DNA of 40,074 bases from Patescibacteria group bacterium (GTDB taxonomy: Bacteria > Patescibacteriota > Microgenomatia > Levybacterales > UBA12049): NCBI GenBank assembly GCA_038061125.1, contig JBBTZX010000034.1, positions 1-40,074 on the forward strand, in the 5' to 3' direction. Below the pieces are notes generated by a model. The model worked only from the letters and a program-made list of their open reading frames with translations. It did no database searches and had not been told where the DNA came from. The position numbers and the translations under genes were made by a program. Shown here piece by piece: positions 1,437-31,823 of the stretch (the stretch's first letter is position 1; every line of letters begins with the position of its first letter).

Positions 1437-2386
1437 TTCTTAATTCTTAAAATAGTCCATCTAATTTTATCCAATAGCTTATATATTTCATAAAAGAATG
1501 AATTAATAACTAAATCAAAACTTCCAATAAATTCAACAAGTTGTCCTCCATAGCCTTCTTTAAACCGATGAAATCCATACCATGGGTCATTTTTATCAGG
1601 ATTAGATCCGAGCGCTCCCCACATATCAAATTTTTTCAAACCAAGTTTTTTGCCAAATTTAATAGCTTCCCACATCATGAGATTTGATGCCATAGTTTCT
1701 CTATAAAGACTTGATGAGGCGCCATAAGGATAATAAAGGGTATCTTTATAAACAAAGAGAATCCAAGCAGTTAATATTTGATTTTTATATTTTGCTAACA
1801 AAAGCCGTGCAGTCAATTTATCGACATTTGAATTTTGAGTTTTTAATGTGTTCCACATCAGCTTATGATAATTTTCTGTGTGTGCATAGAAATTTTGACG
1901 TTTAGTTGTTTCTTTTGTAAGTTTTAGATATTCCTCAAAAGCTTTATCCGAATTATCTTCAATTATTTCAACATTATGTTTTTGAGCTATTTTAATGTTG
2001 TATCGAGTCTTCGGATGCATTGATTTTAATAAATCTTCTTCACTTTTTGTTAAATCCAAAATAAATGTATATTTGGTGAAAAGAGGATGAAAAGAAGGCC
2101 TAATGCCTAAATTTGCCATTTGCCATTTACCATTTGCCATTTGCTTTACGTTTGGTTCAAGTTGGATAAAAATACATTTCTCTTTTTTACCAATCTCACG
2201 AAGTTTAACTACCATTTCTTTTGTTGGCATAGGGCTTTTCGGCAGATATCCTACAGTCCAAGGAGTATGCGGAATTTTATGGATTGTTAGCTGAAATCCC
2301 TTTTCTCTGATAACTTTTAGTCCTGTTTTTTGCCTAAATTCGCCCCATTCTAAAGATTGCATGGGATGAATTGAATTATTGTTCAT
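1433..2386 (-). CDS. FemAB-family peptidoglycan interpeptide-bridge aminoacyltransferase
   Basis: 317 aa. N-terminal QSLEWGEFRQKTG and a C-terminal GFHRFKEGYGG-type segment are typical of the FemABX / lipid II aminoacyltransferase family. Overlaps pcrA stop and start by 4 nt. Confidence 0.7.
   Translation of the reverse strand: MNNNSIHPMQSLEWGEFRQKTGLKVIREKGFQLTIHKIPHTPWTVGYLPKSPMPTKEMVVKLREIGKKEKCIFIQLEPNVKQMANGKWQMANLGIRPSFHPLFTKYTFILDLTKSEEDLLKSMHPKTRYNIKIAQKHNVEIIEDNSDKAFEEYLKLTKETTKRQNFYAHTENYHKLMWNTLKTQNSNVDKLTARLLLAKYKNQILTAWILFVYKDTLYYPYGASSSLYRETMASNLMMWEAIKFGKKLGLKKFDMWGALGSNPDKNDPWYGFHRFKEGYGGQLVEFIGSFDLVINSFFYEIYKLLDKIRWTILRIKK
2112..2144. repeat. Tandem heptanucleotide repeat TTTGCCA x4.7 (one unit TTTACCA) inside the FemAB-like CDS
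   Basis: Read directly: tttgcca tttgcca tttacca tttgcca tttgc. Encodes QMANGKWQMAN on the minus strand. Confidence 0.9.
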
Positions 2387-4254
2387 AGATATTCCGGTAA
2401 ATTTCTATCTAAATTTACAGCATGCAAATTATTCGAAATTACTTCTTCCGGTAGCTCCAAAAGAAATCTGGATATTGTATTGGACGTTCGCTGTCCGAAG
2501 AAAATTCTTCGGGAGGCAAAAGTTAAAAAGAGTTTTTCTTTTGCTCTTGTCATTCCTACATAGCATAAACGTCTTTCTTCCTCCAATTCATTTTTGTCCA
2601 TAAGGCTTCTCTGGTGGGGGAATAATCCTTCTTCCATTCCAACCATAAAAACTATGGGAAACTCAAGTCCTTTAGCCGCATGAAGAGTCATTAAAGTTAT
2701 CGCATCTTTTCTATCGCTATCTTTGGCAGGTTTGTCCGGCATGTATTCTTGTTCAACTAAGGCAATATTTTCCAGAAATTCCGTAAGATTTGGAAAGGCA
2801 ACTGCAACCGAACGAAGTTCTTTAATATTTTCCAGCCTTTCTTTATCTTCCTCCTCGCTTTTATCATATAACGAAAGATAATCAGTTGCTTGTAAGATTT
2901 TATCCAATACCTCAAGAGTTGTAATATTTATTGGATCTTTTATTTTTTCTACCAACTCCAGAAATTTATTCATTCTTCCTTTCCCCAATTTGCCAATCCT
3001 TCTATACGAAACCATATCTTTTGGATTTTCCAAAAATCTAACAAACGCTAGGATATCTTTAATTTCCTTCCTTTCGTAAAACCTAGTACCGCCAACCAGA
3101 ACATAGGGTATGCCTTGATGTAATAATATTTCTTCAATGACTCTGGATTGTGCATTAGTTCTATAAAAAATTGCTACGTCGGTAAATTTCCAGTCAGAGG
3201 TTGGTCCGCCTTTGGCGGAAAAATTTGAGTTTCGAGATTTAAGATTAGCAATCTCTCTAACTATAAATTCTGTTTCATCTTGTTCGTTTCTTGCTTCGTA
3301 GATTATAATATTTTCTCCTTTTGGATTTTTGGTCCAAAGAGATAGGACAGGATGAGTAGTATTATGTGAGATAACCGAAGAAGCAGCATCCAAAATTTTC
3401 TGCGTAGAGCGATAATTCTGTGAAAGAGCAAATGTTTTTGCACCCTTAAAGTCCTCTTTGAATTTCGTAAGATTGGTAAAATCCGCACCCCGCCAACTGT
3501 AAATGCTTTGGGAAAAATCGCCAACAACGCAAATATTTTTCCATTTAAGAGAAAGGGTCTTGGTTAAATAGTATTGTGCATGATTGGTATCCTGATATTC
3601 ATCAACCATAATATATTGAAAGCGATTCTGATATTTCTTAAGGATTTCTTGTTCTTTGTTGAAAAGCTCTATGGTTTTTAGTAAAAGATCATCGAAATCC
3701 AAAGCGTTGTTTTCCGAGAGCTGTTCTTGATATTTAATGTAAATTCTGGCTGCTTGTTCCTGAAAATGTCCTCTTGCATATCTAGGATATTCAAGCGAGG
3801 TTATCAGCTCATTTTTGGCCTGGGAAATTGCGCCTAATATAGAAGAAGGTTTATAATCTTTGGTTGGAATATTTAGTTTTAGCATAGCTTCTTTTATTGC
3901 ATCCAGCTGATCGGTAGTATCGTATATGGCAAATTTTTCCGAAAGGCCGATGTGTTTTCCTTCTATTCTAAGAATTCTGGCACATAAAGAATGAAACGTT
4001 GCGATTAATGGTTTTCCTTTTGTGATAAACTTTCCAATTCTTTCTTTCATTTCATTTGCCGCTTTATTGGTAAACGTTACCATTAATATATTGGACGGAT
4101 CGATACCTTTCTCCTGTATTAAATACACAACTTTATAAGTTAAAACCCTGGTTTTGCCGCTGCCTGCACCCGCAAGTATGACCATCGGACCGTCTGTATT
4201 TATTACTGCTTGTTTTTGTTCCAAATTTAAGTCCTTGAGAAAGGCATCAATCAT
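2383..4254 (-). CDS. pcrA: ATP-dependent DNA helicase PcrA/UvrD (SF1)
   Basis: 623 aa. Walker A AGAGSGKTRVLT, DEYQDT motif II, TLHAAKGLEF and CYVGMTRAKEKL helicase motifs. Confidence 0.9.
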   Translation of the reverse strand: MIDAFLKDLNLEQKQAVINTDGPMVILAGAGSGKTRVLTYKVVYLIQEKGIDPSNILMVTFTNKAANEMKERIGKFITKGKPLIATFHSLCARILRIEGKHIGLSEKFAIYDTTDQLDAIKEAMLKLNIPTKDYKPSSILGAISQAKNELITSLEYPRYARGHFQEQAARIYIKYQEQLSENNALDFDDLLLKTIELFNKEQEILKKYQNRFQYIMVDEYQDTNHAQYYLTKTLSLKWKNICVVGDFSQSIYSWRGADFTNLTKFKEDFKGAKTFALSQNYRSTQKILDAASSVISHNTTHPVLSLWTKNPKGENIIIYEARNEQDETEFIVREIANLKSRNSNFSAKGGPTSDWKFTDVAIFYRTNAQSRVIEEILLHQGIPYVLVGGTRFYERKEIKDILAFVRFLENPKDMVSYRRIGKLGKGRMNKFLELVEKIKDPINITTLEVLDKILQATDYLSLYDKSEEEDKERLENIKELRSVAVAFPNLTEFLENIALVEQEYMPDKPAKDSDRKDAITLMTLHAAKGLEFPIVFMVGMEEGLFPHQRSLMDKNELEEERRLCYVGMTRAKEKLFLTFASRRIFFGQRTSNTISRFLLELPEEVISNNLHAVNLDRNLPEYL

Positions 4255-6873: not shown

Positions 6874-7536
6874 ATGAAAAAGCTTTTTATTGTAGGTAAT
6901 TGGAAGTCAAATAAAACAGCTCTCGAAGCCAAAAACTGGCTTGACGCGTTTAAGGTAAACGATTTAGGAATTACAGACAAAGAAATTATAATTTGTCCTC
7001 CATTTACCCTTTTGTCTTCGATTTCGTTAGAAGTTAGAAGTCAGAAGTTAGAAGCTAGGATTGGCGCGCAGGATATTTCCCCTTTTGATGAGGGTGCATA
7101 TACAGGAGAAATTAATGGGAAGCAAATTAAAGAGTTTGGGGATTATGTTTTGATTGGGCATTCCGAAAGGCGGCAATATCTTAAGGAAGATGACGAAATC
7201 TTAAATAGGAAAGTGATAATGGCTATTAAGTATAATTTGATACCAATTTTTTGCGTACAAGAACGGAATACTGTTATTCCTTCAGGCGTTAGAATAGTAG
7301 CTTACGAACCAATATGGGCAATTGGCACTGGTAATCCGGATACTCCGGATAATGCTGAACAAGTTGCAACAGCGATAAAATCTTCCAATAAAGAAATTAC
7401 ACATATTCTTTATGGCGGAAGCATAACGTCAGCGAATACAAATAGTTTTACAAAAATGTCCCAGATCGATGGGGTTTTGGTAGGAGGCGCAAGTCTAGAT
7501 TCCACGGAATTTTTAAAGATCATTAAAAATGCATAA
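6874..7536 (+). CDS. tpiA: Triosephosphate isomerase (short form)
   Basis: VGNWKSNKT, IGHSERR, AYEPIWAIGTG, LYGGS motifs. TATAAT at 6860-6865 lies 8 nt before the ATG. Confidence 0.9.
   Translation: MKKLFIVGNWKSNKTALEAKNWLDAFKVNDLGITDKEIIICPPFTLLSSISLEVRSQKLEARIGAQDISPFDEGAYTGEINGKQIKEFGDYVLIGHSERRQYLKEDDEILNRKVIMAIKYNLIPIFCVQERNTVIPSGVRIVAYEPIWAIGTGNPDTPDNAEQVATAIKSSNKEITHILYGGSITSANTNSFTKMSQIDGVLVGGASLDSTEFLKIIKNA
7026..7060. repeat. Tandem heptanucleotide repeat GTTAGAA x5 (units 3 and 5 diverged) inside tpiA
   Basis: gttagaa gttagaa gtcagaa gttagaa gctagga. Encodes LEVRSQKLEAR. Confidence 0.9.
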
Positions 7537-8629: not shown

Positions 8630-10726
8630 CTAATATTTGAATTTATAGATTGTTACTCCTTTGTTTAGATATATTATACTGCCGAGTTGTTTAAATTTAT
8701 CCTCATTTAAATACAAATATTTTTTTCTTTCCAGCTCACCTACATAGACATATGAAATATTGTATTTCTTCAGAAGTTCTTTTGTAACGAGTAAATCTTT
8801 GGATTCGTAAAGGGCTGATACATCATTGATTCTGGGAGCGGGGATATCGTAAGTTCCGCGCCATAACCACTCATGTACTGTCCAACCCAAAACTGTCGGA
8901 AGACCGGTATTCGCAGATATTCTGGCATAATCTGTATAAGAATCTCCTTGCGCTTCCAAAATTACAGGTTGTCCTTTGATATTCTTGTTTATCCATTGAA
9001 TTGCCAAATAGTCATTTGGATAAAGAGAATTTAAATAAGATGTACCGTTAAGCCCTTTGTAGGAATTTAACCCGCCATAATAAGAGTTAATTGCAAAATA
9101 AGGATAAATCCCTACGAGAAATAACCCAATAATGCCAATTCCAAATACTACCAATTTGAAATAAGAAAGTCTAAGATTTGAAAATATTTTAAAAATTATA
9201 TAACCTGAAGAAATAGATAGCATGATGAAAGATTCGTAAACAAGTTTAAACATAGTATTCGCTCTATAATGAGCAGGATAAATGTCCTTTAAATACACAA
9301 ATTCAGGAACAACGATAAGAATCGTAGATAAGATTATTAGAATTCCAATGAAGATATCACTAGCGTTTGGTTTATAACGCTTAGCGTTTAGTTTTAGAAA
9401 AATAATAAATGCTATAACCCAGAAATAAAAAAATCCGTAAAGAATTGCCAGCTGCCAAAGAGGAGATTTTTGACAATGGTTTGGTTCAAAAAGAAAAGGA
9501 CCAAGATGTCCGATATCCGTCAAAAACTTTGGTGCGCAAAGAATTCCGATATTGGAAGCAAAGGGAGTAAAATTTTTAGAAAAAGGTAAAGAGAAAAGAA
9601 ATGCGCCTCCCATAAGAAACAGAAGGTTCATATATATTCCGGATTTAGGCTTAATAAAAAGAATAATAAGAAAGACAAGCAAGAAATAGATAATTGTATC
9701 CCAAACATTTGTCATATACATTATTGCCAATAAAAAGCTTATTAAAAGCAGAGTTGGGATTTTGAAGTTTTTAGAATAGAAAGATGAGAGAAGGATGGCA
9801 ATTGTAAGCAAAACGAAAGGGATATCCAATACATGTCCATGTAAATCCGAAACAACGAAAGAATAAATTGGGAATTCATGGATAGTATTGAAAATAAAAC
9901 GCGTTGCATTGGGGTACCAGTATGCATTTGGGAAATTTTGCGGAGAAAATATAAGCTGCCAAAAGGGAACAGGCGAGCCATTTACATAAGGAGTGAAAAA
10001 TGAATATATAGAGTGGATATTTCCTCCCATAGCTACAAGAAGCGAAGTCAGTAGTCCTCCAAGAAGAATTTTTAATTTTAAATTTTTAATTTTAAATTGA
10101 CTAAGAAGATTTAACCCGATAGAAAAACTGGCGGTAAAGGTTAAAGAAAATAAAGTAGCGATCATAAGGTTATAAGTTATGAAAGAGGGGATTTGAGATA
10201 TTTTCGTCAAAAGAGCAGTCACTAAATGGCCAAAATAATAGTAGTTTATAGGAAATGGTGTAAACCACATATCGCGCGGAGGAAAATAATCAGCCCGCAG
10301 AATGGAATTTACGAATCCAAAATCCATAAATTTTTCCAGCCCATGGATATCAGGCTGAAATCCTCTTACATAAGACCAAAAGAGGAGAGCGGCCAAAAAG
10401 ATTAGCTCTTCGAGAAAATAGATCCCCAAATTTTTCTTAAAATTTAATTTCGATAGAAACTTAGTTTTTTTAGCAACGAATAGATTAACAATTAATAAAA
10501 TTATACAAACAAGAATAATAGTAGGCATTTGGAATGGAAGGATTTTTAATATCCCAAGCAAAAAAACTATATAACTTAAAATTGCAATTCCCAGAATTCT
10601 TGAAAAAATATATCCTCTGTCAAAAAAATTAGAAAAAATGCTGGTAGTCAGCGGCAAAAAAACAATCCCAATAGTAAGAAACATTACCCACCATTTAAAA
10701 ACGTAAGATAAATCAGATAGAAACAT
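8630..10726 (-). CDS. Large polytopic membrane protein, DUF2298 / chlor_Arch_YYY-type (GT-C-like)
   Basis: 698 aa, more than 15 hydrophobic segments, INYYYFGH motif, soluble C-terminal domain. Confidence 0.6.
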   Translation of the reverse strand: MFLSDLSYVFKWWVMFLTIGIVFLPLTTSIFSNFFDRGYIFSRILGIAILSYIVFLLGILKILPFQMPTIILVCIILLIVNLFVAKKTKFLSKLNFKKNLGIYFLEELIFLAALLFWSYVRGFQPDIHGLEKFMDFGFVNSILRADYFPPRDMWFTPFPINYYYFGHLVTALLTKISQIPSFITYNLMIATLFSLTFTASFSIGLNLLSQFKIKNLKLKILLGGLLTSLLVAMGGNIHSIYSFFTPYVNGSPVPFWQLIFSPQNFPNAYWYPNATRFIFNTIHEFPIYSFVVSDLHGHVLDIPFVLLTIAILLSSFYSKNFKIPTLLLISFLLAIMYMTNVWDTIIYFLLVFLIILFIKPKSGIYMNLLFLMGGAFLFSLPFSKNFTPFASNIGILCAPKFLTDIGHLGPFLFEPNHCQKSPLWQLAILYGFFYFWVIAFIIFLKLNAKRYKPNASDIFIGILIILSTILIVVPEFVYLKDIYPAHYRANTMFKLVYESFIMLSISSGYIIFKIFSNLRLSYFKLVVFGIGIIGLFLVGIYPYFAINSYYGGLNSYKGLNGTSYLNSLYPNDYLAIQWINKNIKGQPVILEAQGDSYTDYARISANTGLPTVLGWTVHEWLWRGTYDIPAPRINDVSALYESKDLLVTKELLKKYNISYVYVGELERKKYLYLNEDKFKQLGSIIYLNKGVTIYKFKY
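10068..10098. repeat. 14-nt tandem repeat ATTTTTAATTTTAA x2.2 (two diverged 7-mers per unit) inside the YYY-protein CDS
   Basis: Read directly at 10068-10081, 10082-10095 and a partial third unit. Low-complexity AT sequence. Confidence 0.7.
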
Positions 10727-14051: not shown

Positions 14052-15685
14052 ATTTTCTTAAAGATAAAAACAGTTGGTCTATCAAATACATTAGCAGTTT
14101 GTTCTAATGAAAAAAGCGGATTCCCAAAATAAGAAATTTTACAGAATATATCGCAAGGAGTTTGATAAATTTTAGTAAAACCAATATTCTCATTAAGAAG
14201 TAAATTATAAAATTTATTACCCGATGGAAATTTTTCGCTATTCATAATGCGTGTTTTCATAATACGATTGCTCGGTAGGGCTATGTAATCAGTACGAGCA
14301 AGTAAAAAAGATAGCTCTTCAGTTTTTGTTGGTGCGTTATTATCAAGGTCATAAAAATTAAATAAAGTGATATTTGGGAAAAATGAATTAAAGGGAAGTA
14401 TTCCCAAATCGTAAACTTCACTTAGGATGCGTGCGTTACTGGAAATATTTTGCTTAGCAAATCTTAATGCAGACATTCTGGTGTCTTCATTTATAAAAGC
14501 GGTTTTGAAATAAGAAAAAGTAAAAATTATTGCAGAAATGCTTAATATCAAGAATATAATTTTTGAGAAAATCTTTATCGTATTCTTTCTCGTCTCTAAC
14601 AAGTCTACCATGAACAAGGAGATTGTAAGATAGATAAAAGGTAGGGTTGGTACCATATATCTTGTCCATTTGGCAAACAGAAACGATTGGAGAAGAAATA
14701 GTATTAAGTAGCAAGCATTAAGCATTAAGTATTGGGGATTTTTAGTTTTTATTCCTTTGAAAAGCAAATAAAAAAATGAAAAGATAAAAACAGTTGTTAA
14801 AACGGGATTGAGAAGGAAGGGGTAAATTTTTGTGAATTGGAAAACAACAGGAACAGAACTAAAAAATTCACCAGTGTAAAATACGGGTAAAGTTCCCAAT
14901 GCAACTGAAGATTCGTATTTTAGGCTGGACATAAATGAACCAAAGTCCAAAAATGCAAAAGGAGAAGTTGAAAACAATATAATTATTGTCGGAAGAAAAA
15001 CCATTAATGAATCCGAAATAGAAGCTCTTATTAAATAAAATGGTTTCTGTTTGTTTTTGATATTATTTATTAAGACAAAAAGTAGAATATAGAAAAAAAT
15101 AAAACCTCCTGATATCTTCGTAGATAATAAAAGCCCAAAAATAAGACCTATTATCAAAAGCAGTTTCTTGTTGCCCGAGTTTAAAAATAATAAAGAAAGA
15201 TAAAGGATAGCTAACGATAAAAATGTTATCCATATTTCAAATGTAGAGAAATGGGCGAATTGAATAAGCCCAATACTAAAGGTAGTCATAAAAGCGGAAA
15301 AAATTCCTGTTTTTTTATCTCTTAACGTTTTTCCCGTAGCATAAATTAAGGGAATAATTAGTAAAGAAAGAAAAGCGGAATAAAATCTTCCTATAAAAAT
15401 TGATTTATCAAAGGAGGATTGAGCTATTGGTTTTAAGGAAAAAATTACATTGATCATGATGGAGCTAAGATAATTTAAATATATTGGAAAACTTCCATAT
15501 GCAAAAAAATGAGGGTTCATTTGTAAGGGGAAATTAAGTTGTGAAACTGCAGAAGCAATATTGCGTTCATCCGGGTGGAAATAGAAAGGAGCGCCCCAAT
15601 TAAGATTATAAAATCTCAAAAAACCGCCGATTAAGATTAATATAATTATTATTAATATTTCCTTATTTTTTAATAAATTTTTCAT
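14048..15685 (-). CDS. GT-C fold glycosyltransferase (GT39/ArnT/PMT-like) membrane protein
   Basis: Start moved to the internal ATG at 15685 (MKNLLKNKEIL...), which forms an ATGA overlap with the stop of the upstream oxidoreductase. HPDERN motif, many TM helices. Confidence 0.6.
   Translation of the reverse strand: MKNLLKNKEILIIIILILIGGFLRFYNLNWGAPFYFHPDERNIASAVSQLNFPLQMNPHFFAYGSFPIYLNYLSSIMINVIFSLKPIAQSSFDKSIFIGRFYSAFLSLLIIPLIYATGKTLRDKKTGIFSAFMTTFSIGLIQFAHFSTFEIWITFLSLAILYLSLLFLNSGNKKLLLIIGLIFGLLLSTKISGGFIFFYILLFVLINNIKNKQKPFYLIRASISDSLMVFLPTIIILFSTSPFAFLDFGSFMSSLKYESSVALGTLPVFYTGEFFSSVPVVFQFTKIYPFLLNPVLTTVFIFSFFYLLFKGIKTKNPQYLMLNACYLILFLLQSFLFAKWTRYMVPTLPFIYLTISLFMVDLLETRKNTIKIFSKIIFLILSISAIIFTFSYFKTAFINEDTRMSALRFAKQNISSNARILSEVYDLGILPFNSFFPNITLFNFYDLDNNAPTKTEELSFLLARTDYIALPSNRIMKTRIMNSEKFPSGNKFYNLLLNENIGFTKIYQTPCDIFCKISYFGNPLFSLEQTANVFDRPTVFIFKKI
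14713..14733. repeat. Tandem heptanucleotide repeat AAGCATT x3 (third unit AAGTATT) inside the GT-C CDS
   Basis: aagcatt aagcatt aagtatt read directly. Confidence 0.8.
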
Positions 15686-16938
15686 TTTTCGCTTACTATT
15701 TTTGCAATTTTTTGTCCGAGTTCTACTGCGTAATTTGTTCCTCTGTCCCAAGGGTAAACTTGTTGGATATTGGCAAGATAAACATTTTTAAGCGGAGTTT
15801 CAAAAGGAGGCATTATTTTTGAATAATTAATCGGAATAATGGGTTGCGAAAAAGGAGTTTTGAATAGTTGATAGTTGATAGTTGATAGTTGATAGTTGGG
15901 ATTTATTTTTTTCAAAAAAGGATCATAGATTTTTAATAATTCTTCTGCTGACATTTTCATATGCGGATGGTCATAGGGCAAATAGTTTCCCAAATACACG
16001 ATATGTTCGTTATTATAATATTTTTTATCCATAAAATTTGTATGCTCAACAACAGCCATTACTGACGAGTTTTTTTCGCAGATGCTTAGCCAATAAGTGC
16101 CGTCTTTTAAAAACTGTTTTTTTAAACGCAATACTAAATTTAGAGAACCTAATCCTTTGAGACTTGTTAACTTATCTTTATAATCATTTGGCAGTTGAGG
16201 CGCAATTTTGAGAAATGAAAAAGAAGGTAGGGTAACAACAACTGCGTCGAATTTTAACGTGTTGATTGAAAGTTTTTCATTACTTTTTAGTTCAGTTACT
16301 TCTGTATTAAACAAAACTTTTCCTCCGTTTTGTTTAATTTTTGTAACAAGAGTATTTGCGAAGTTTAGAAATCCTCCTTCAGGATAGGCAAGGGAAGGAG
16401 TTCTTTTTACAAGTCTAGCCCAAAACCAAGCAAGAGATACGCTGTTAGCGTATTTCCCAAATTTATTAATAAGTTGGGGCTCCCAAATTTTTTCGTAAGC
16501 ATTTTTCCCCATTGCTTTACGAAGAAAATTTGCGGCTTTTATTTTTTCAAGAGGTTTCCAGAAAGGATTATAACGAAGCAATCCTAAAACTGCAGCCATT
16601 CTTAACTTTTCGTATAAATTTAATTTCGGGAAAGTAAGAACTTTACTTAAAGAATCAAGTTGGTAGATACTATTATCCAGATAAACAGAAGTCTTTGGTC
16701 TTTTTATTAAAACTTTATAACCAATTTCTTTTGCAAGTCCTAAAATGCTTTTATCGTTGGTAAACCAGTGATGGTAGTGTTTCTCCAAAGACCACTCCCA
16801 GTCTTTTTGAGTAAATCCAACTGCTAGGCCTCCTGGACTATCATCTTTCTCAAAGAGAGTAACTTGATGATTGTTCTTTGTAAGATAATAAGCTGCGGAC
16901 AGGCCTGTAAATCCGGCTCCGATAATTGCTATTTTCAT
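15682..16938 (-). CDS. FAD/NAD(P)-binding oxidoreductase (amine-oxidase / phytoene-desaturase-like fold)
   Basis: MKIAIIGAGFTGLSAAYYL dinucleotide-binding motif followed by FEKDDSPGG. 418 aa. Confidence 0.65.
   Translation of the reverse strand: MKIAIIGAGFTGLSAAYYLTKNNHQVTLFEKDDSPGGLAVGFTQKDWEWSLEKHYHHWFTNDKSILGLAKEIGYKVLIKRPKTSVYLDNSIYQLDSLSKVLTFPKLNLYEKLRMAAVLGLLRYNPFWKPLEKIKAANFLRKAMGKNAYEKIWEPQLINKFGKYANSVSLAWFWARLVKRTPSLAYPEGGFLNFANTLVTKIKQNGGKVLFNTEVTELKSNEKLSINTLKFDAVVVTLPSFSFLKIAPQLPNDYKDKLTSLKGLGSLNLVLRLKKQFLKDGTYWLSICEKNSSVMAVVEHTNFMDKKYYNNEHIVYLGNYLPYDHPHMKMSAEELLKIYDPFLKKINPNYQLSTINYQLFKTPFSQPIIPINYSKIMPPFETPLKNVYLANIQQVYPWDRGTNYAVELGQKIAKIVSEK
15864..15898. repeat. Perfect tandem heptanucleotide repeat ATAGTTG x5 inside the oxidoreductase CDS
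   Basis: Five identical units read directly. Encodes NYQLSTINYQL on the minus strand. Confidence 0.95.
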
Positions 16939-26744: not shown

Positions 26745-28472
26745 ATGAACAATCAAAATAACATCAGGAATTTTGCCATCATCGCCCATGTGGATCACGG
26801 CAAATCAACTCTTGCAGACAGGTTTTTGGAAATTACAAATACGATTCCCAAAGAAAAAATGCGGGAACAGTTTTTAGACCAAAATCCAATCAGTAGGGAA
26901 AGAGGAATTACAATAAAACTAGCCCCGGTTAGAATGAACTACACGCTAAACGCTATTAACTATACGTTAAATTTAATTGATACTCCGGGGCATGTAGATT
27001 TTTCTTATGAGGTGTCTCGTACTTTGGCTGCATGCGAAGGCGCGATACTGCTGATAGATGCTACGCAAGGAATTCAAGCACAAACCGTAGCCCATTTAAA
27101 TTCTGCAAGAGAAGAAAAACTAACGATAATTCCGGTTATAAATAAGATAGATTTGGATATCGCCAAGCCCGAAGAAGTGGCAGTTGCACTAATCGAAAAA
27201 TTTGGATTTACAAAAGACGAAATAATTTATATTTCCGCAAAAACAGGCAAAAATGTCGAGGATCTTCTTAAAGCTGTAATTGCAAGAATCCCAGCCCCGC
27301 AAGGATTGGATTCTCCTTTAAAAGCTCTCATTTTTGATGCTTTTTATGATGAGTATAAAGGAGTAATCGTTTATGTAAAGATAAGGGATGGAAAAGTTAA
27401 AAAGACCGATAGAATAAAATTTCTGCAAAGTAGCGCAGAAGGAGAAGTTACGGAAGTTGGATATTTTTCTCCATTTCTTGCAGCCAAAAACGAATTAACA
27501 ACAGGAGAAATAGGCTATATTATCACAGGGGTTAAAGACATTCGGCTTGCTCGAGTCGGAGATACTATAGCTTTTGCCAATCACCAAACTTTACCATTAC
27601 CTGGCTACAGACAATCAAAACCCTTAGTGTTTTTCGGTGTATATCCGAAAGCCTCAAATGAATTGGTTCACCTTAAAGAGTCTCTTAATGCCTTGGCATT
27701 AAATGATACGTCCTTAACAATTGCGGAGGAACATTCGGCCTTTTTAGGATCGGGTTTCAGGGTGGGATTTTTGGGATTACTGCATGCGGAAATAGTCAAA
27801 GAAAGACTAAAAAAAGAGAAAGAAATTGATGCAATTTTTACAACACCATCGGTTTTATATAAAAAGGAAAAAGAAACAATGTTTGAACCATACATAAGAT
27901 TAACAGTATATTCGCCAAATGAGTATGTGGGACAGATAATAACTGTATGTCAAAATAAAAAAGGAGAGCTTGTAGATATGTCCTATCAGGGTAATAATGT
28001 TATTTTTACCTATAATATGCCATACAGTATGCTTATCCGCGGACTTTCGTCAGAGATTAAAACCGCATCGTCGGGATTTGCCAGCATAGATTATACGCTT
28101 ACTGATTATAGACAAGCAGATCTTGTTAATCTTGAAATACGAGTCAATGATGTTTCAATAGATGTTCTATCGGAATTTGTCTATAGAGATGAAATAAATA
28201 TAGAGGCAAGAAAAAAAGTAGAGAAATTAAAAAATTCATTGCCAAAGCAGCAATTTAGACAGATTATTCAGGCCGTTGCCGACTCAAGAATATTAGCCAA
28301 AGAAGAGATAGCACCTTTTAGGAAAGACGTTTTAGCCAAAATGTCTGGAGGAGATAGAGGGCGAAAAGATAAGCTTTTGGATAAACAAAAGAAAGGCAAA
28401 AAGCGTCTTATGTCGCAAGCAAAAATTACTATTCCACAGGAAGCATTGCTTTCTTTAATAGGAAATAGTTAA
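26745..28472 (+). CDS. lepA: Translation elongation factor 4 (LepA)
   Basis: IRNFAIIAHVDHGKSTLADR G1 motif, DTPGHVDF, NKID, and a LepA-type C-terminal domain. 575 aa. Confidence 0.9.
   Translation: MNNQNNIRNFAIIAHVDHGKSTLADRFLEITNTIPKEKMREQFLDQNPISRERGITIKLAPVRMNYTLNAINYTLNLIDTPGHVDFSYEVSRTLAACEGAILLIDATQGIQAQTVAHLNSAREEKLTIIPVINKIDLDIAKPEEVAVALIEKFGFTKDEIIYISAKTGKNVEDLLKAVIARIPAPQGLDSPLKALIFDAFYDEYKGVIVYVKIRDGKVKKTDRIKFLQSSAEGEVTEVGYFSPFLAAKNELTTGEIGYIITGVKDIRLARVGDTIAFANHQTLPLPGYRQSKPLVFFGVYPKASNELVHLKESLNALALNDTSLTIAEEHSAFLGSGFRVGFLGLLHAEIVKERLKKEKEIDAIFTTPSVLYKKEKETMFEPYIRLTVYSPNEYVGQIITVCQNKKGELVDMSYQGNNVIFTYNMPYSMLIRGLSSEIKTASSGFASIDYTLTDYRQADLVNLEIRVNDVSIDVLSEFVYRDEINIEARKKVEKLKNSLPKQQFRQIIQAVADSRILAKEEIAPFRKDVLAKMSGGDRGRKDKLLDKQKKGKKRLMSQAKITIPQEALLSLIGNS
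26937..26978. repeat. Diverged 21-nt tandem duplication inside lepA (NYTLNAI / NYTLNLI)
   Basis: aactacacgctaaacgctatt / aactatacgttaaatttaatt, 15 of 21 identical. Lies just before DTPGH. Confidence 0.7.
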
Positions 28473-30129: not shown

Positions 30130-31788
<1,659 letters not shown>

Positions 31789-31823
31789 AATAAATTAAAA
31801 ATAAAAAGTAAAAAATCATTAGA

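Follow-up and report, generated by a model that had tools for sequence, protein, structure and literature searches.

Heptanucleotide arrays inside housekeeping genes of a groundwater Levybacteria genome: probable heptamer-specific slippage filtered by reading frame and stop codons

Why should the gene of an ordinary enzyme carry five identical copies of a seven-nucleotide unit, head to tail and without a single mismatch? Of all microsatellites, those whose unit length cannot be divided by three ought to fare worst in coding DNA. Yet no other kind is enriched in the genome considered here, where such repeats are found in the housekeeping genes of an organism with nearly no DNA to spare. The question is raised by contig JBBTZX010000034.1 of the Patescibacteria assembly GCA_038061125.1, of which we have analysed a stretch of 40,074 nucleotides (nt), from here on the window. 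The genome (G000) is that of a groundwater member of the Levybacteria, within the candidate phyla radiation (CPR), and comprises 819 kb in 106 contigs with a G+C content of 36.6%. The element in question is the array ATAGTTG x5 at positions 15864-15898 of the window (the focal array), which lies in the following gene:

15682-16938, minus strand, flavin adenine dinucleotide (FAD)-dependent oxidoreductase gene (amine-oxidase / protoporphyrinogen-oxidase-like, 418 aa; Pfam Amino_oxidase, DAO, NAD_binding_8), holding the focal array

The answer that we propose is that the array is one among many produced, probably, by a heptamer-specific slipped-strand turnover in repair-poor Levybacteria, the products of which are filtered by selection on reading frame and stop codons.

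A preliminary description of this DNA had reported a perfect ATAGTTG x5 encoding NYQLSTINYQL inside the coding sequence (CDS) of a FAD oxidoreductase. Both parts hold, the gene by its Pfam domains and the repeat by Tandem Repeats Finder (TRF), which gives period 7, 5.0 copies, 100% matches, no indels and a score of 70 over the 35 nt. On the coding strand the array reads CAACTAT x5 and spans codons 347-359 (PNYQLSTINYQLF), 83% along the gene; NYQLSTINYQL corresponds to residues 348-358 of the 418-residue protein. Public homologues are labelled FAD-dependent oxidoreductase of Candidatus Levybacteria and the family consensus at this site is NYxLSxINYxLF. In the AlphaFold2 model of the protein (predicted local distance difference test, pLDDT, 90.5) residues 349-352 form a short helix and residues 353-366 a long strand, with a pLDDT of about 94-96 there. 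According to the model, therefore, the array encodes a conserved and ordered element, and not a loose linker.

We have identified tandem repeats throughout G000 with TRF, and used as controls Markov-1, Markov-3 and Markov-5 shuffles as well as codon shuffling within each CDS. There are 171 period-7 TRF rows in the genome, 69 of them at a score of at least 40, against 0.2-1.4 in the Markov shuffles. The comparison with shuffled CDS, which the preliminary description had proposed, gave an equally clear excess, with 57 period-7 repeats at a score of at least 40 (0.1 in the codon-shuffled CDS) and 32 at a score of at least 50 (0.0). The excess is specific to this period. At scores of at least 50 there are 35 repeats of period 7, 27 of period 14, 12 of period 21 and no more than three of any other; periods 14 and 21 are thus enriched as well, and periods 5, 6, 8, 9 and 10 stay near background. 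The same appears for exact period-7 runs, which exceed expectation from two copies upwards (at least 2 copies, 178 observed vs 92 expected; at least 2.5, 36 vs 1.5; at least 3, 14 vs 0), while no exact run of period 5, 6, 8, 9 or 10 in G000 reaches 3.5 copies.

After merging, the strong arrays of G000 number 104, of which 86 (83%) are inside open reading frames (ORFs), 9 overlap an ORF end and 9 are intergenic (by our ORF calls the coding fraction of the genome is 94%). At least one array is present in 69 of the 929 ORFs (~7%), and 12 of these hold two or three. Copy numbers range from 2.7 to 6.6, mostly 4.3-5.0, with a median length of 32 nt, and their means inside and outside ORFs are nearly the same (4.65 and 4.64). 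Positions along the genes are uniform, with no concentration at the 5' end. The carriers include tpiA, lepA, recJ, FemAB and the FAD oxidoreductase along with glycosyltransferase and envelope genes. On the coding strand the units are rich in A (48% vs 34% overall; 77% A+T, 11% G). The preliminary description had called the units unrelated, and within the window they do differ; over the whole genome there are recurring families, with 34 canonical units in the 69 genic arrays (AAGAATY 14, AAGTTAG 5, AATTCAT 5, AAATGGC 4 and AAAAATC 4). Among the stop-free units, 68% fall within the top 5% by codon-frequency product. Stop-free, codon-compatible heptamers are nevertheless insufficient as the whole explanation of unit recurrence, given that 55% of the units contain a stop in some rotation and that AAGAATY is above the codon-usage model.

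These carriers and positions bear directly on the other possibility that had been raised in the preliminary description, namely that the arrays are contingency (phase-variable) loci, kept since the gain or loss of a unit switches genes on and off in part of the population. With a unit of 7 nt, not a multiple of 3, a change by one unit would indeed cause a frameshift, glycosyltransferase and envelope genes are among those affected, and heptanucleotide switches are known in other bacteria, the promoter of Haemophilus influenzae hmw1A (PMC8262952) and neuO of Escherichia coli K1 (PMC13001214) being examples in which an out-of-frame unit can switch the gene. As far as these accounts go, such loci are few per genome, belong to surface or host-interaction genes, have many units and show documented copy-number variation between clones; here we find about 100 loci with 4-5 units each, core metabolism and translation factors included, and a length that is fixed across relatives. 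Genes such as tpiA, lepA, recJ, FemAB and the oxidoreductase are not what such a switch would call for, and neither is the even spread, free of 5' or promoter bias, that includes a focal array at 83% of its gene and in a conserved helix-strand element modelled with high confidence. Arrays outside genes are of equal size. Only 0-4 of 190 arrays in G000 sit where a unit change would join two ORFs, those four at boundaries of co-oriented genes, and no convincing split (frameshifted OFF) gene was found at any of the 190. Together with the constancy of five units at the focal site in five lineages (see below), this leaves the contingency explanation without support at these loci, and we consider it very unlikely.

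The lengths of the arrays, pooled over G000, G002, G019 and G120, are quantised within ORFs. In ORFs, 48 perfect period-7 arrays measure 15-19 nt and 18 measure 31-35 nt, with only 2 in between (20-30 nt) and none above 35 nt. When arrays with at least 80% matches are considered, those of 22-29 nt amount to 23 of 101 in ORFs vs 17 of 31 outside (odds ratio 0.24, p=0.0014). The well-populated ORF length is what results when three units, the smallest step that stays in frame, are added to a seed of about 1.4-2 copies, and the arrays of 52, 53 and 55 nt in G019 represent another 21-nt step. This is the pattern to be expected if slippage gained and lost whole 7-nt units wherever neighbouring heptamers are partly alike and if, in genes, alleles with a net change that is not a multiple of 3 nt were purged. 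Such purging of out-of-frame alleles would be the reason why only the seed of ~2 copies and the state with three more units (31-35 nt, about 4.4-5 copies) are seen in genes.

Stop codons tell a similar story. Consensus units with a stop in some rotation make up 38 of 69 (55%), compared with 48% expected for random heptamers of coding-strand composition, and all six AAGTTAG-type arrays (6/6, that of tpiA included) have GTCAG at the very unit where a TAG would be in frame. Arrays that contain stops thus survive because one unit is changed exactly at the would-be in-frame stop; slippage that repeated the unit blindly would be followed by retention of a single variant unit wherever the repeat would create such a stop. 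Since stops are not avoided in the units and are edited in frame, the process itself is blind to coding and it is selection that edits its outcome.

Could selection have made the arrays in the first place, by favouring peptides with a period of 7 residues (two helical turns), or a motif of 7/21 bp in DNA or RNA? Three units of 7 nt are 21 nt, or 7 residues, which makes the encoded peptides heptad-like; so is the family consensus at the focal site, and 21 bp is about two turns of B-DNA. Selection on a protein would yield a 21-nt period, though, and not the identity of three 7-nt sub-units read in three frames; as a cause of the nucleotide periodicity it is excluded on this ground. The peptides are chemically unrelated (KSKIKNQ, GKWQMAN, IIHNSLF, NYQLSTI), units containing stops are not avoided and close relatives of similar composition have zero arrays. 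Taken as a whole, an origin by selection on product or nucleic acid appears extremely improbable.

A way to glimpse at how the arrays change is to follow orthologous sites. The focal site is ungapped in the orthologues of 11 relatives (from the same genus, family and order) and of two closer ones, with nearly unchanged residues (NPNYQLSIINSQLFK in G010 and NPNYKLSIINYKLFK in G019, for example). The nucleotide state of the site is:

G000: CAACTAT x5, perfect
L073 (92% nt identity to G000): CAACTAT x5, perfect
G001 (same genus): two mismatches
L074 (86% nt identity): TAATTAT CAATCAT CAATTAT CAATCAT CAGTTAT, a period-14 variant
G002 (same genus): largely degraded
G019 (another family): AAATTAT-type array
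G003, G004, G011 and G016 (same family): non-periodic

At unit position 4 all five units of L074 have T, vs C in G000. Five lineages at 8-20% nt divergence all keep five units. The focal site therefore shows concerted evolution at constant length. The preliminary description had spoken of a process that seeds arrays in coding DNA, and for this site the wording does not apply, the orthologues being of the same length and differing by concerted substitution with no seeded insertion. It had also pointed to orthologues with the same residues and no nucleotide periodicity as evidence to the contrary, and on this the outcome is mixed: the site is periodic, be it with the same unit or with another, in G001, G010 and G019, and non-periodic in the four members of the same family listed last. 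Repeated gain and loss of units, or misaligned copying, would spread unit variants across an array, and we propose that this is why orthologous sites remain arrays of equal length while their unit drifts.

Over the 5-7 kb of flanking DNA of the focal array that could be aligned, indels are few and small, with one exception. In the oxidoreductase gene of G002 an array has been born, CGCTAGA CGCTAAA CGCTATA CGCTA, in place of the single GCGCTA of three relatives. This 24-nt birth, +21 nt plus 3 nt, is in frame, and its sole variable position averts an in-frame TAA. Genome-wide, 44 array sites of G000 could be aligned to this congener, and 21 of them are ungapped. Several orthologous sites are 7-periodic in both genomes with unrelated units and equal total length (GGCAAAT/GGAAAAT vs AAATCAA, for instance), both tracts of such pairs being about 30-34 nt long.

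The density of arrays, expressed as strong period-7 TRF arrays per 100 kb of sampled DNA, varies widely among relatives. It reaches 35 in G120 and 25.5 in G019, followed by 8.4 in G000, 8.1 in G002, 3.3 in G007 and 1.7 in G025, and it is 0 in G013, G016, G024, G018 and G006. The G+C content of these genomes is 0.35-0.40, save for G006 (0.45). The trait is a patchy feature of lineages that composition does not explain. The preliminary description had suggested, as one of its two alternatives, a lineage-specific mutational process, and this is where the evidence points, given the genome-wide excess specific to period 7, its absence in relatives of similar G+C and units that ignore coding. As a diagnostic pattern we have used (AAATCAA)x4 with up to 2 mismatches, which is present in 85 of the 245 genomes and 50 of the 103 genera of the order, and in 26 of 400 genomes drawn evenly from the phylum. 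The reversed control pattern (AACTAAA)x4 gave 15 and 13 matches in G376 and G336, two Patescibacteria from beyond the order. The matches are heptamer arrays with a different unit, so that other lineages of the phylum bear heptamer loads of their own.

MutS is encoded by 50 of the 245 genomes of the order and by 0 of the 34 that have at least four matches to the diagnostic pattern (p=3.6e-4, a statistic that ignores phylogeny and genome size). A second gene, whose 474-residue product joins a DnaQ-like DEDDh 3'-5' exonuclease to a GIY-YIG nuclease, occurs in 121 of the 245 and in only 7 of the 34 pattern-rich genomes (odds ratio 0.22, phylogeny and genome size again ignored). Genomes with both MutS and the exonuclease (43) have a mean of 0.19 pattern matches, those with MutS only (7) 1.14, those with the exonuclease only (78) 0.99 and those with neither (117) 2.17. 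The DEDDh-GIY-YIG fusion is absent from G000; an example is found in G090 (L097, 589-2013, minus strand). DinB shows no association with the arrays, RecJ is present in G000, the 5' nuclease of Pol I is found in all genomes checked, and neither the array-rich nor the array-free genomes have ExoVII, MutL, NucS or Smr/MutS2. RecJ is a single-strand exonuclease that stabilises tandem repeats in E. coli, and its gene in G000 (C44:1813-3498) carries two heptamer arrays itself, at C44:2124-2163 and 3328-3361. As a separate observation on the replication genes, DnaE of G016 (C1:210703-215079; L112, L113) is encoded in one frame of 1512 aa to which the polymerase model aligns as two parts (model positions 1-752 and 747-1022) some 1.3 kb from each other; it looks like it holds an in-frame insertion such as an intein.

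Taken together, these data make it likely that a replication slippage specific to 7 nt creates, and keeps homogenising, the ~100 arrays, in certain Levybacteria lineages that have lost post-replicative repair functions. A number of observations weigh against it. A two-copy seed cannot gain three units at once by simple slippage, and for this reason out-of-frame intermediates or reiterated slippage must be assumed. Where array sites of G000 and G002 differ in length, they do so by 1-5, 8 or 11-14 aa, never by exactly 7, and against the array-free G013 the median difference over 27 sites is +1 aa (range -6 to +19). Outside ORFs, too, arrays remain shorter than about 34-35 nt, so that the upper length limit cannot be solely an effect of frame. 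Unit-number variants were not recovered either, since a pattern of the flanks with a variable gap gave just two matches on metagenome contigs, both chance hits in unrelated sequence, and the protein collection had no strain-level homologue of the oxidoreductase (the closest are 92% and 89% identical). As to repair, 80% of the order lacks MutS and some of the MutS-negative genomes are free of arrays (G013, G024), while the links to both genes are correlations uncorrected for phylogeny and genome size; the loss of repair would hence be at most permissive. The PHP proofreading ligands of DnaE are conserved in 12 of 12 genomes compared, array-rich and array-free alike.

With a median change of +1 aa against G013, where simple expansion predicts otherwise, the arrays appear mostly to replace sequence in variable segments rather than to add 21 nt; arrays as +7-aa insertions relative to G013 were rejected on the same figure. 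The main rival explanation starts from here. A short-patch template switch, or misaligned repair, with an offset of 7 nt might copy a heptamer over its neighbour without any indel, the register being set by an enzyme or replisome feature peculiar to the array-bearing lineages. Such constant-length overwriting would agree with that small net change, with the equal length of the focal array and many others to their non-periodic orthologues (the perfect 32-nt array at C78:1181, for one, shows no gap against G013), with the single position at which all five units of L074 differ from G000 and with orthologous tracts that both measure ~30-34 nt despite unrelated units. It does not sit well with the clean birth of +21(+3) nt in G002. 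Besides, the depletion at 20-30 nt is restricted to ORFs, as unit-step change with a frame filter predicts and pure overwriting does not, the array-free relatives may carry decayed old arrays of equal length, and a search for a candidate enzyme found none. We consider overwriting unlikely, if worth keeping in mind. It would be still harder to argue for a reiterative copying at a fixed 7-nt register, replisome-intrinsic or enzyme-driven, which in certain repair-poor Patescibacteria would overwrite at constant length, unlike microsatellite slippage, and would continuously rewrite segments of ~11 residues in roughly 7% of the ORFs (69/929), including ordered parts of essential enzymes; this we find quite doubtful. 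If true, it would be a previously undescribed mutational engine for the turnover of protein segments in minimal genomes, with a genetic determinant that could be found by comparative genomics.

A second kind of element is present in these genomes, a GC-rich hairpin core of 19-23 nt (YCCTTCG-N5-9-CTCAGGR) with covarying stem ends (CCCT/AGGG, TCCT/AGGA, CACT/AGTG). G000 has 23 copies (among them C45:79-97, C22:1074-1093, C49:11427-11446 and C6:4407-4426; none in the window), and the core is found in 169 of the 245 genomes of the order, with about 890 exact matches vs about 1 for the reversed control. Some copies adjoin tRNA genes. Two cores of G002 (L039:~12553 and L016:~7659) are in-frame insertions of 8 aa that split arrays unbroken in G000. 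This suggests another origin of the arrays, as small mobile repeats, perhaps with the hairpin core, inserted in frame at permissive sites in the manner of the Rickettsia palindromic elements or the small dispersed repeats of cyanobacteria. Those two insertions would speak for it, as would the presence of the core inside arrays above chance (4 of 23 copies, arrays being <1% of the genome) and the recurrence of unit families over many loci and genera, (AAATCAA)x4 occurring in over a third of the order's genomes. The recurrence is largely explained by A-rich codon-compatible heptamers, though (the 68% given above), and the focal array and about half of the arrays compared (21/44 vs G002) show no length difference from their orthologues. 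The unit at one orthologous site varies between genomes, and the arrays share only their period, with no terminal repeats, target duplications or conserved flanks. The core is also distributed unlike the arrays, G004 for example having 28 copies and zero matches to (AAATCAA)x4. The hairpin core is an element separate from the heptamer arrays, and a mobile origin of the latter is hardly credible.

How do the arrays compare with known systems? An excess of heptanucleotide simple repeats in some prokaryotes was reported, and slippage with a polymerase contact of ~7 nt proposed, by Mrazek et al. (2007, PNAS 104:8472), as far as the summaries in PMC4679880 and PMC4692102 convey it. These long simple sequence repeats are like ours in their head-to-tail tandem units (5-11 nt, with 7 nt dominant), in runs beyond the expectation from composition and in a scattered phylogenetic distribution. 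In the same summaries they occur mainly in large or GC-rich genomes (Burkholderia, Xanthomonas, cyanobacteria, actinobacteria) and mainly outside genes, only units divisible by 3 being favoured in coding DNA. Here, on the contrary, the genome is a 0.8-Mb one of the Patescibacteria, 83% of the strong arrays are in ORFs instead of mostly in noncoding DNA, they are read in each of the three frames, come in frame-quantised lengths and persist at orthologous sites. The GGGAATC arrays of Xanthomonas, the GGGGAYT arrays of Nostoc/Anabaena (PMC4692102) and the short tandemly repeated repetitive (STRR) sequences of cyanobacteria resemble ours in the 7-nt unit, in the hundreds of scattered arrays and in a marked tendency towards about four units, which recalls the 4.3-5 copies here. 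In Xanthomonas and Nostoc a single G-rich consensus unit, which can form G-quadruplexes, occurs between ORFs and is under-represented within genes (PMC4692102), while we see at least 34 AT-rich units without G-tracts, mostly intragenic, that is, neither a G-rich consensus nor an intergenic location.

The TAACTGA repeats of marine Beggiatoaceae (PMC4679880) are also abundant and patchy among lineages, and the few within ORFs are read as a 7-residue periodic peptide; they have a single unit with stops in all three frames in one orientation, sit for the most part in 5' leaders, where they have been proposed to act in translation, and their ORF copies are at protein ends (PMC4679880). Closer in another respect are the tandem repeats of Borgs (PMC9879509), which are perfect, recently homogenised, arise independently in ORFs and add or remodel protein segments. 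Their ORF units are multiples of 3 nt, in longer arrays and in disordered regions (PMC9879509), as opposed to the 7-nt unit, the ~32-nt arrays and the ordered helix-strand of the focal one here. In the literature that we searched, no account of such arrays turned up, be it for the Patescibacteria or for housekeeping genes. The arrays are a coding-tolerant variant of the known prokaryotic heptanucleotide simple-repeat excess.

The arrays amount to a natural experiment on mutation bias vs selection, in which the frame filter can be read as a length gap, the stops are edited and orthologous segments are concertedly rewritten. A repeat load linked to the loss of MutS and of the DEDDh-GIY-YIG nuclease in an uncultivated phylum makes the question of why seven tractable by comparative genomics and by replicase biochemistry. 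On the practical side, such arrays can mislead the annotation and alignment of CPR proteins and can pass for phase-variation switches.

Regarding the assembly, many contig ends of G000 share exactly 55 nt, with 100% identity, with another contig, and for many others the overlap is of 100-340 nt with 85-95% identity (the end of C57 and the start of C65, the end of C103 and the start of C79, or the start of the window and the end of C87). The breaks in the bin fall at k-mer junctions, and two or more related strains are mixed in it. Arrays lie within 60 nt of contig ends 2.5-fold more often than expected (11 vs 4.3), a weak sign of polymorphism, because the strain mixture makes the assembly fork everywhere.

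The remaining tracts of the window, identified by TRF unless stated and with genes assigned by Pfam, are:

2111-2144, minus strand, GCAAATG x4.9 in a FemAB-family gene, residues 81-92 (KQMANGKWQMAN)
7026-7058, plus strand, GTTAGAA x4.7 in the triosephosphate isomerase gene (tpiA), residues 51-62 (SLEVRSQKLEAR)
10067-10098, minus strand, AATTTAA/AATTAAA, perfect at period 14, 4.6 heptamers, in a DUF2298 membrane-protein gene, residues 210-220
14713-14733, minus strand, AATGCTT x3 with one mismatch in a PMT_2 / GT-C glycosyltransferase gene (TRF score only 35)
26937-26978, plus strand, diverged 21-nt duplication in lepA (NYTLNAI / NYTLNLI), 15/21 matches, weakly 7-periodic (CGCTAAA CGCTATT), below a TRF score of 30

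The preliminary description had listed these five as further 7-nt tracts. TRF recovers the first four, the glycosyltransferase one with a score so low that ~30-50 period-7 tracts per genome reach it by chance, which makes this tract weak when taken alone; the lepA tract goes undetected at scores of at least 30 and is a diverged duplication only. The FemAB site is also 7-periodic, with equal length and unrelated units, in G002 (AAATTTA-type) and in G019 (ATCTAAG-type). In tpiA the third unit is GTCAGAA, precisely at the would-be in-frame TAG; G002 has the same unit family here, ungapped, and G019 is ungapped and non-periodic. The DUF2298 site of G002 has another heptamer tract, interrupted by a GC-rich hairpin core of 22-24 nt (+8 aa). 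An A-rich low-complexity tract at 31787-31816 (AAAATA / AAATAAA, 3.6-4.7 imperfect copies), at the end of the ORF at 30136-31788, is probably intergenic and does not belong with the clean heptamer arrays.

At the lepA duplication G002 has identical sequence and G019 a far longer, unrelated loop. The LepA of G019 (L061, aligned to 26745-28472 of the window) is 37 residues longer, the additional residues being of low complexity and placed directly before the conserved LNLIDTPGH, where G000 has NYTLNAINYTLN. Judging from this alignment, the highly conserved LepA GTPase appears to tolerate large change at the loop that precedes LNLIDTPGH.

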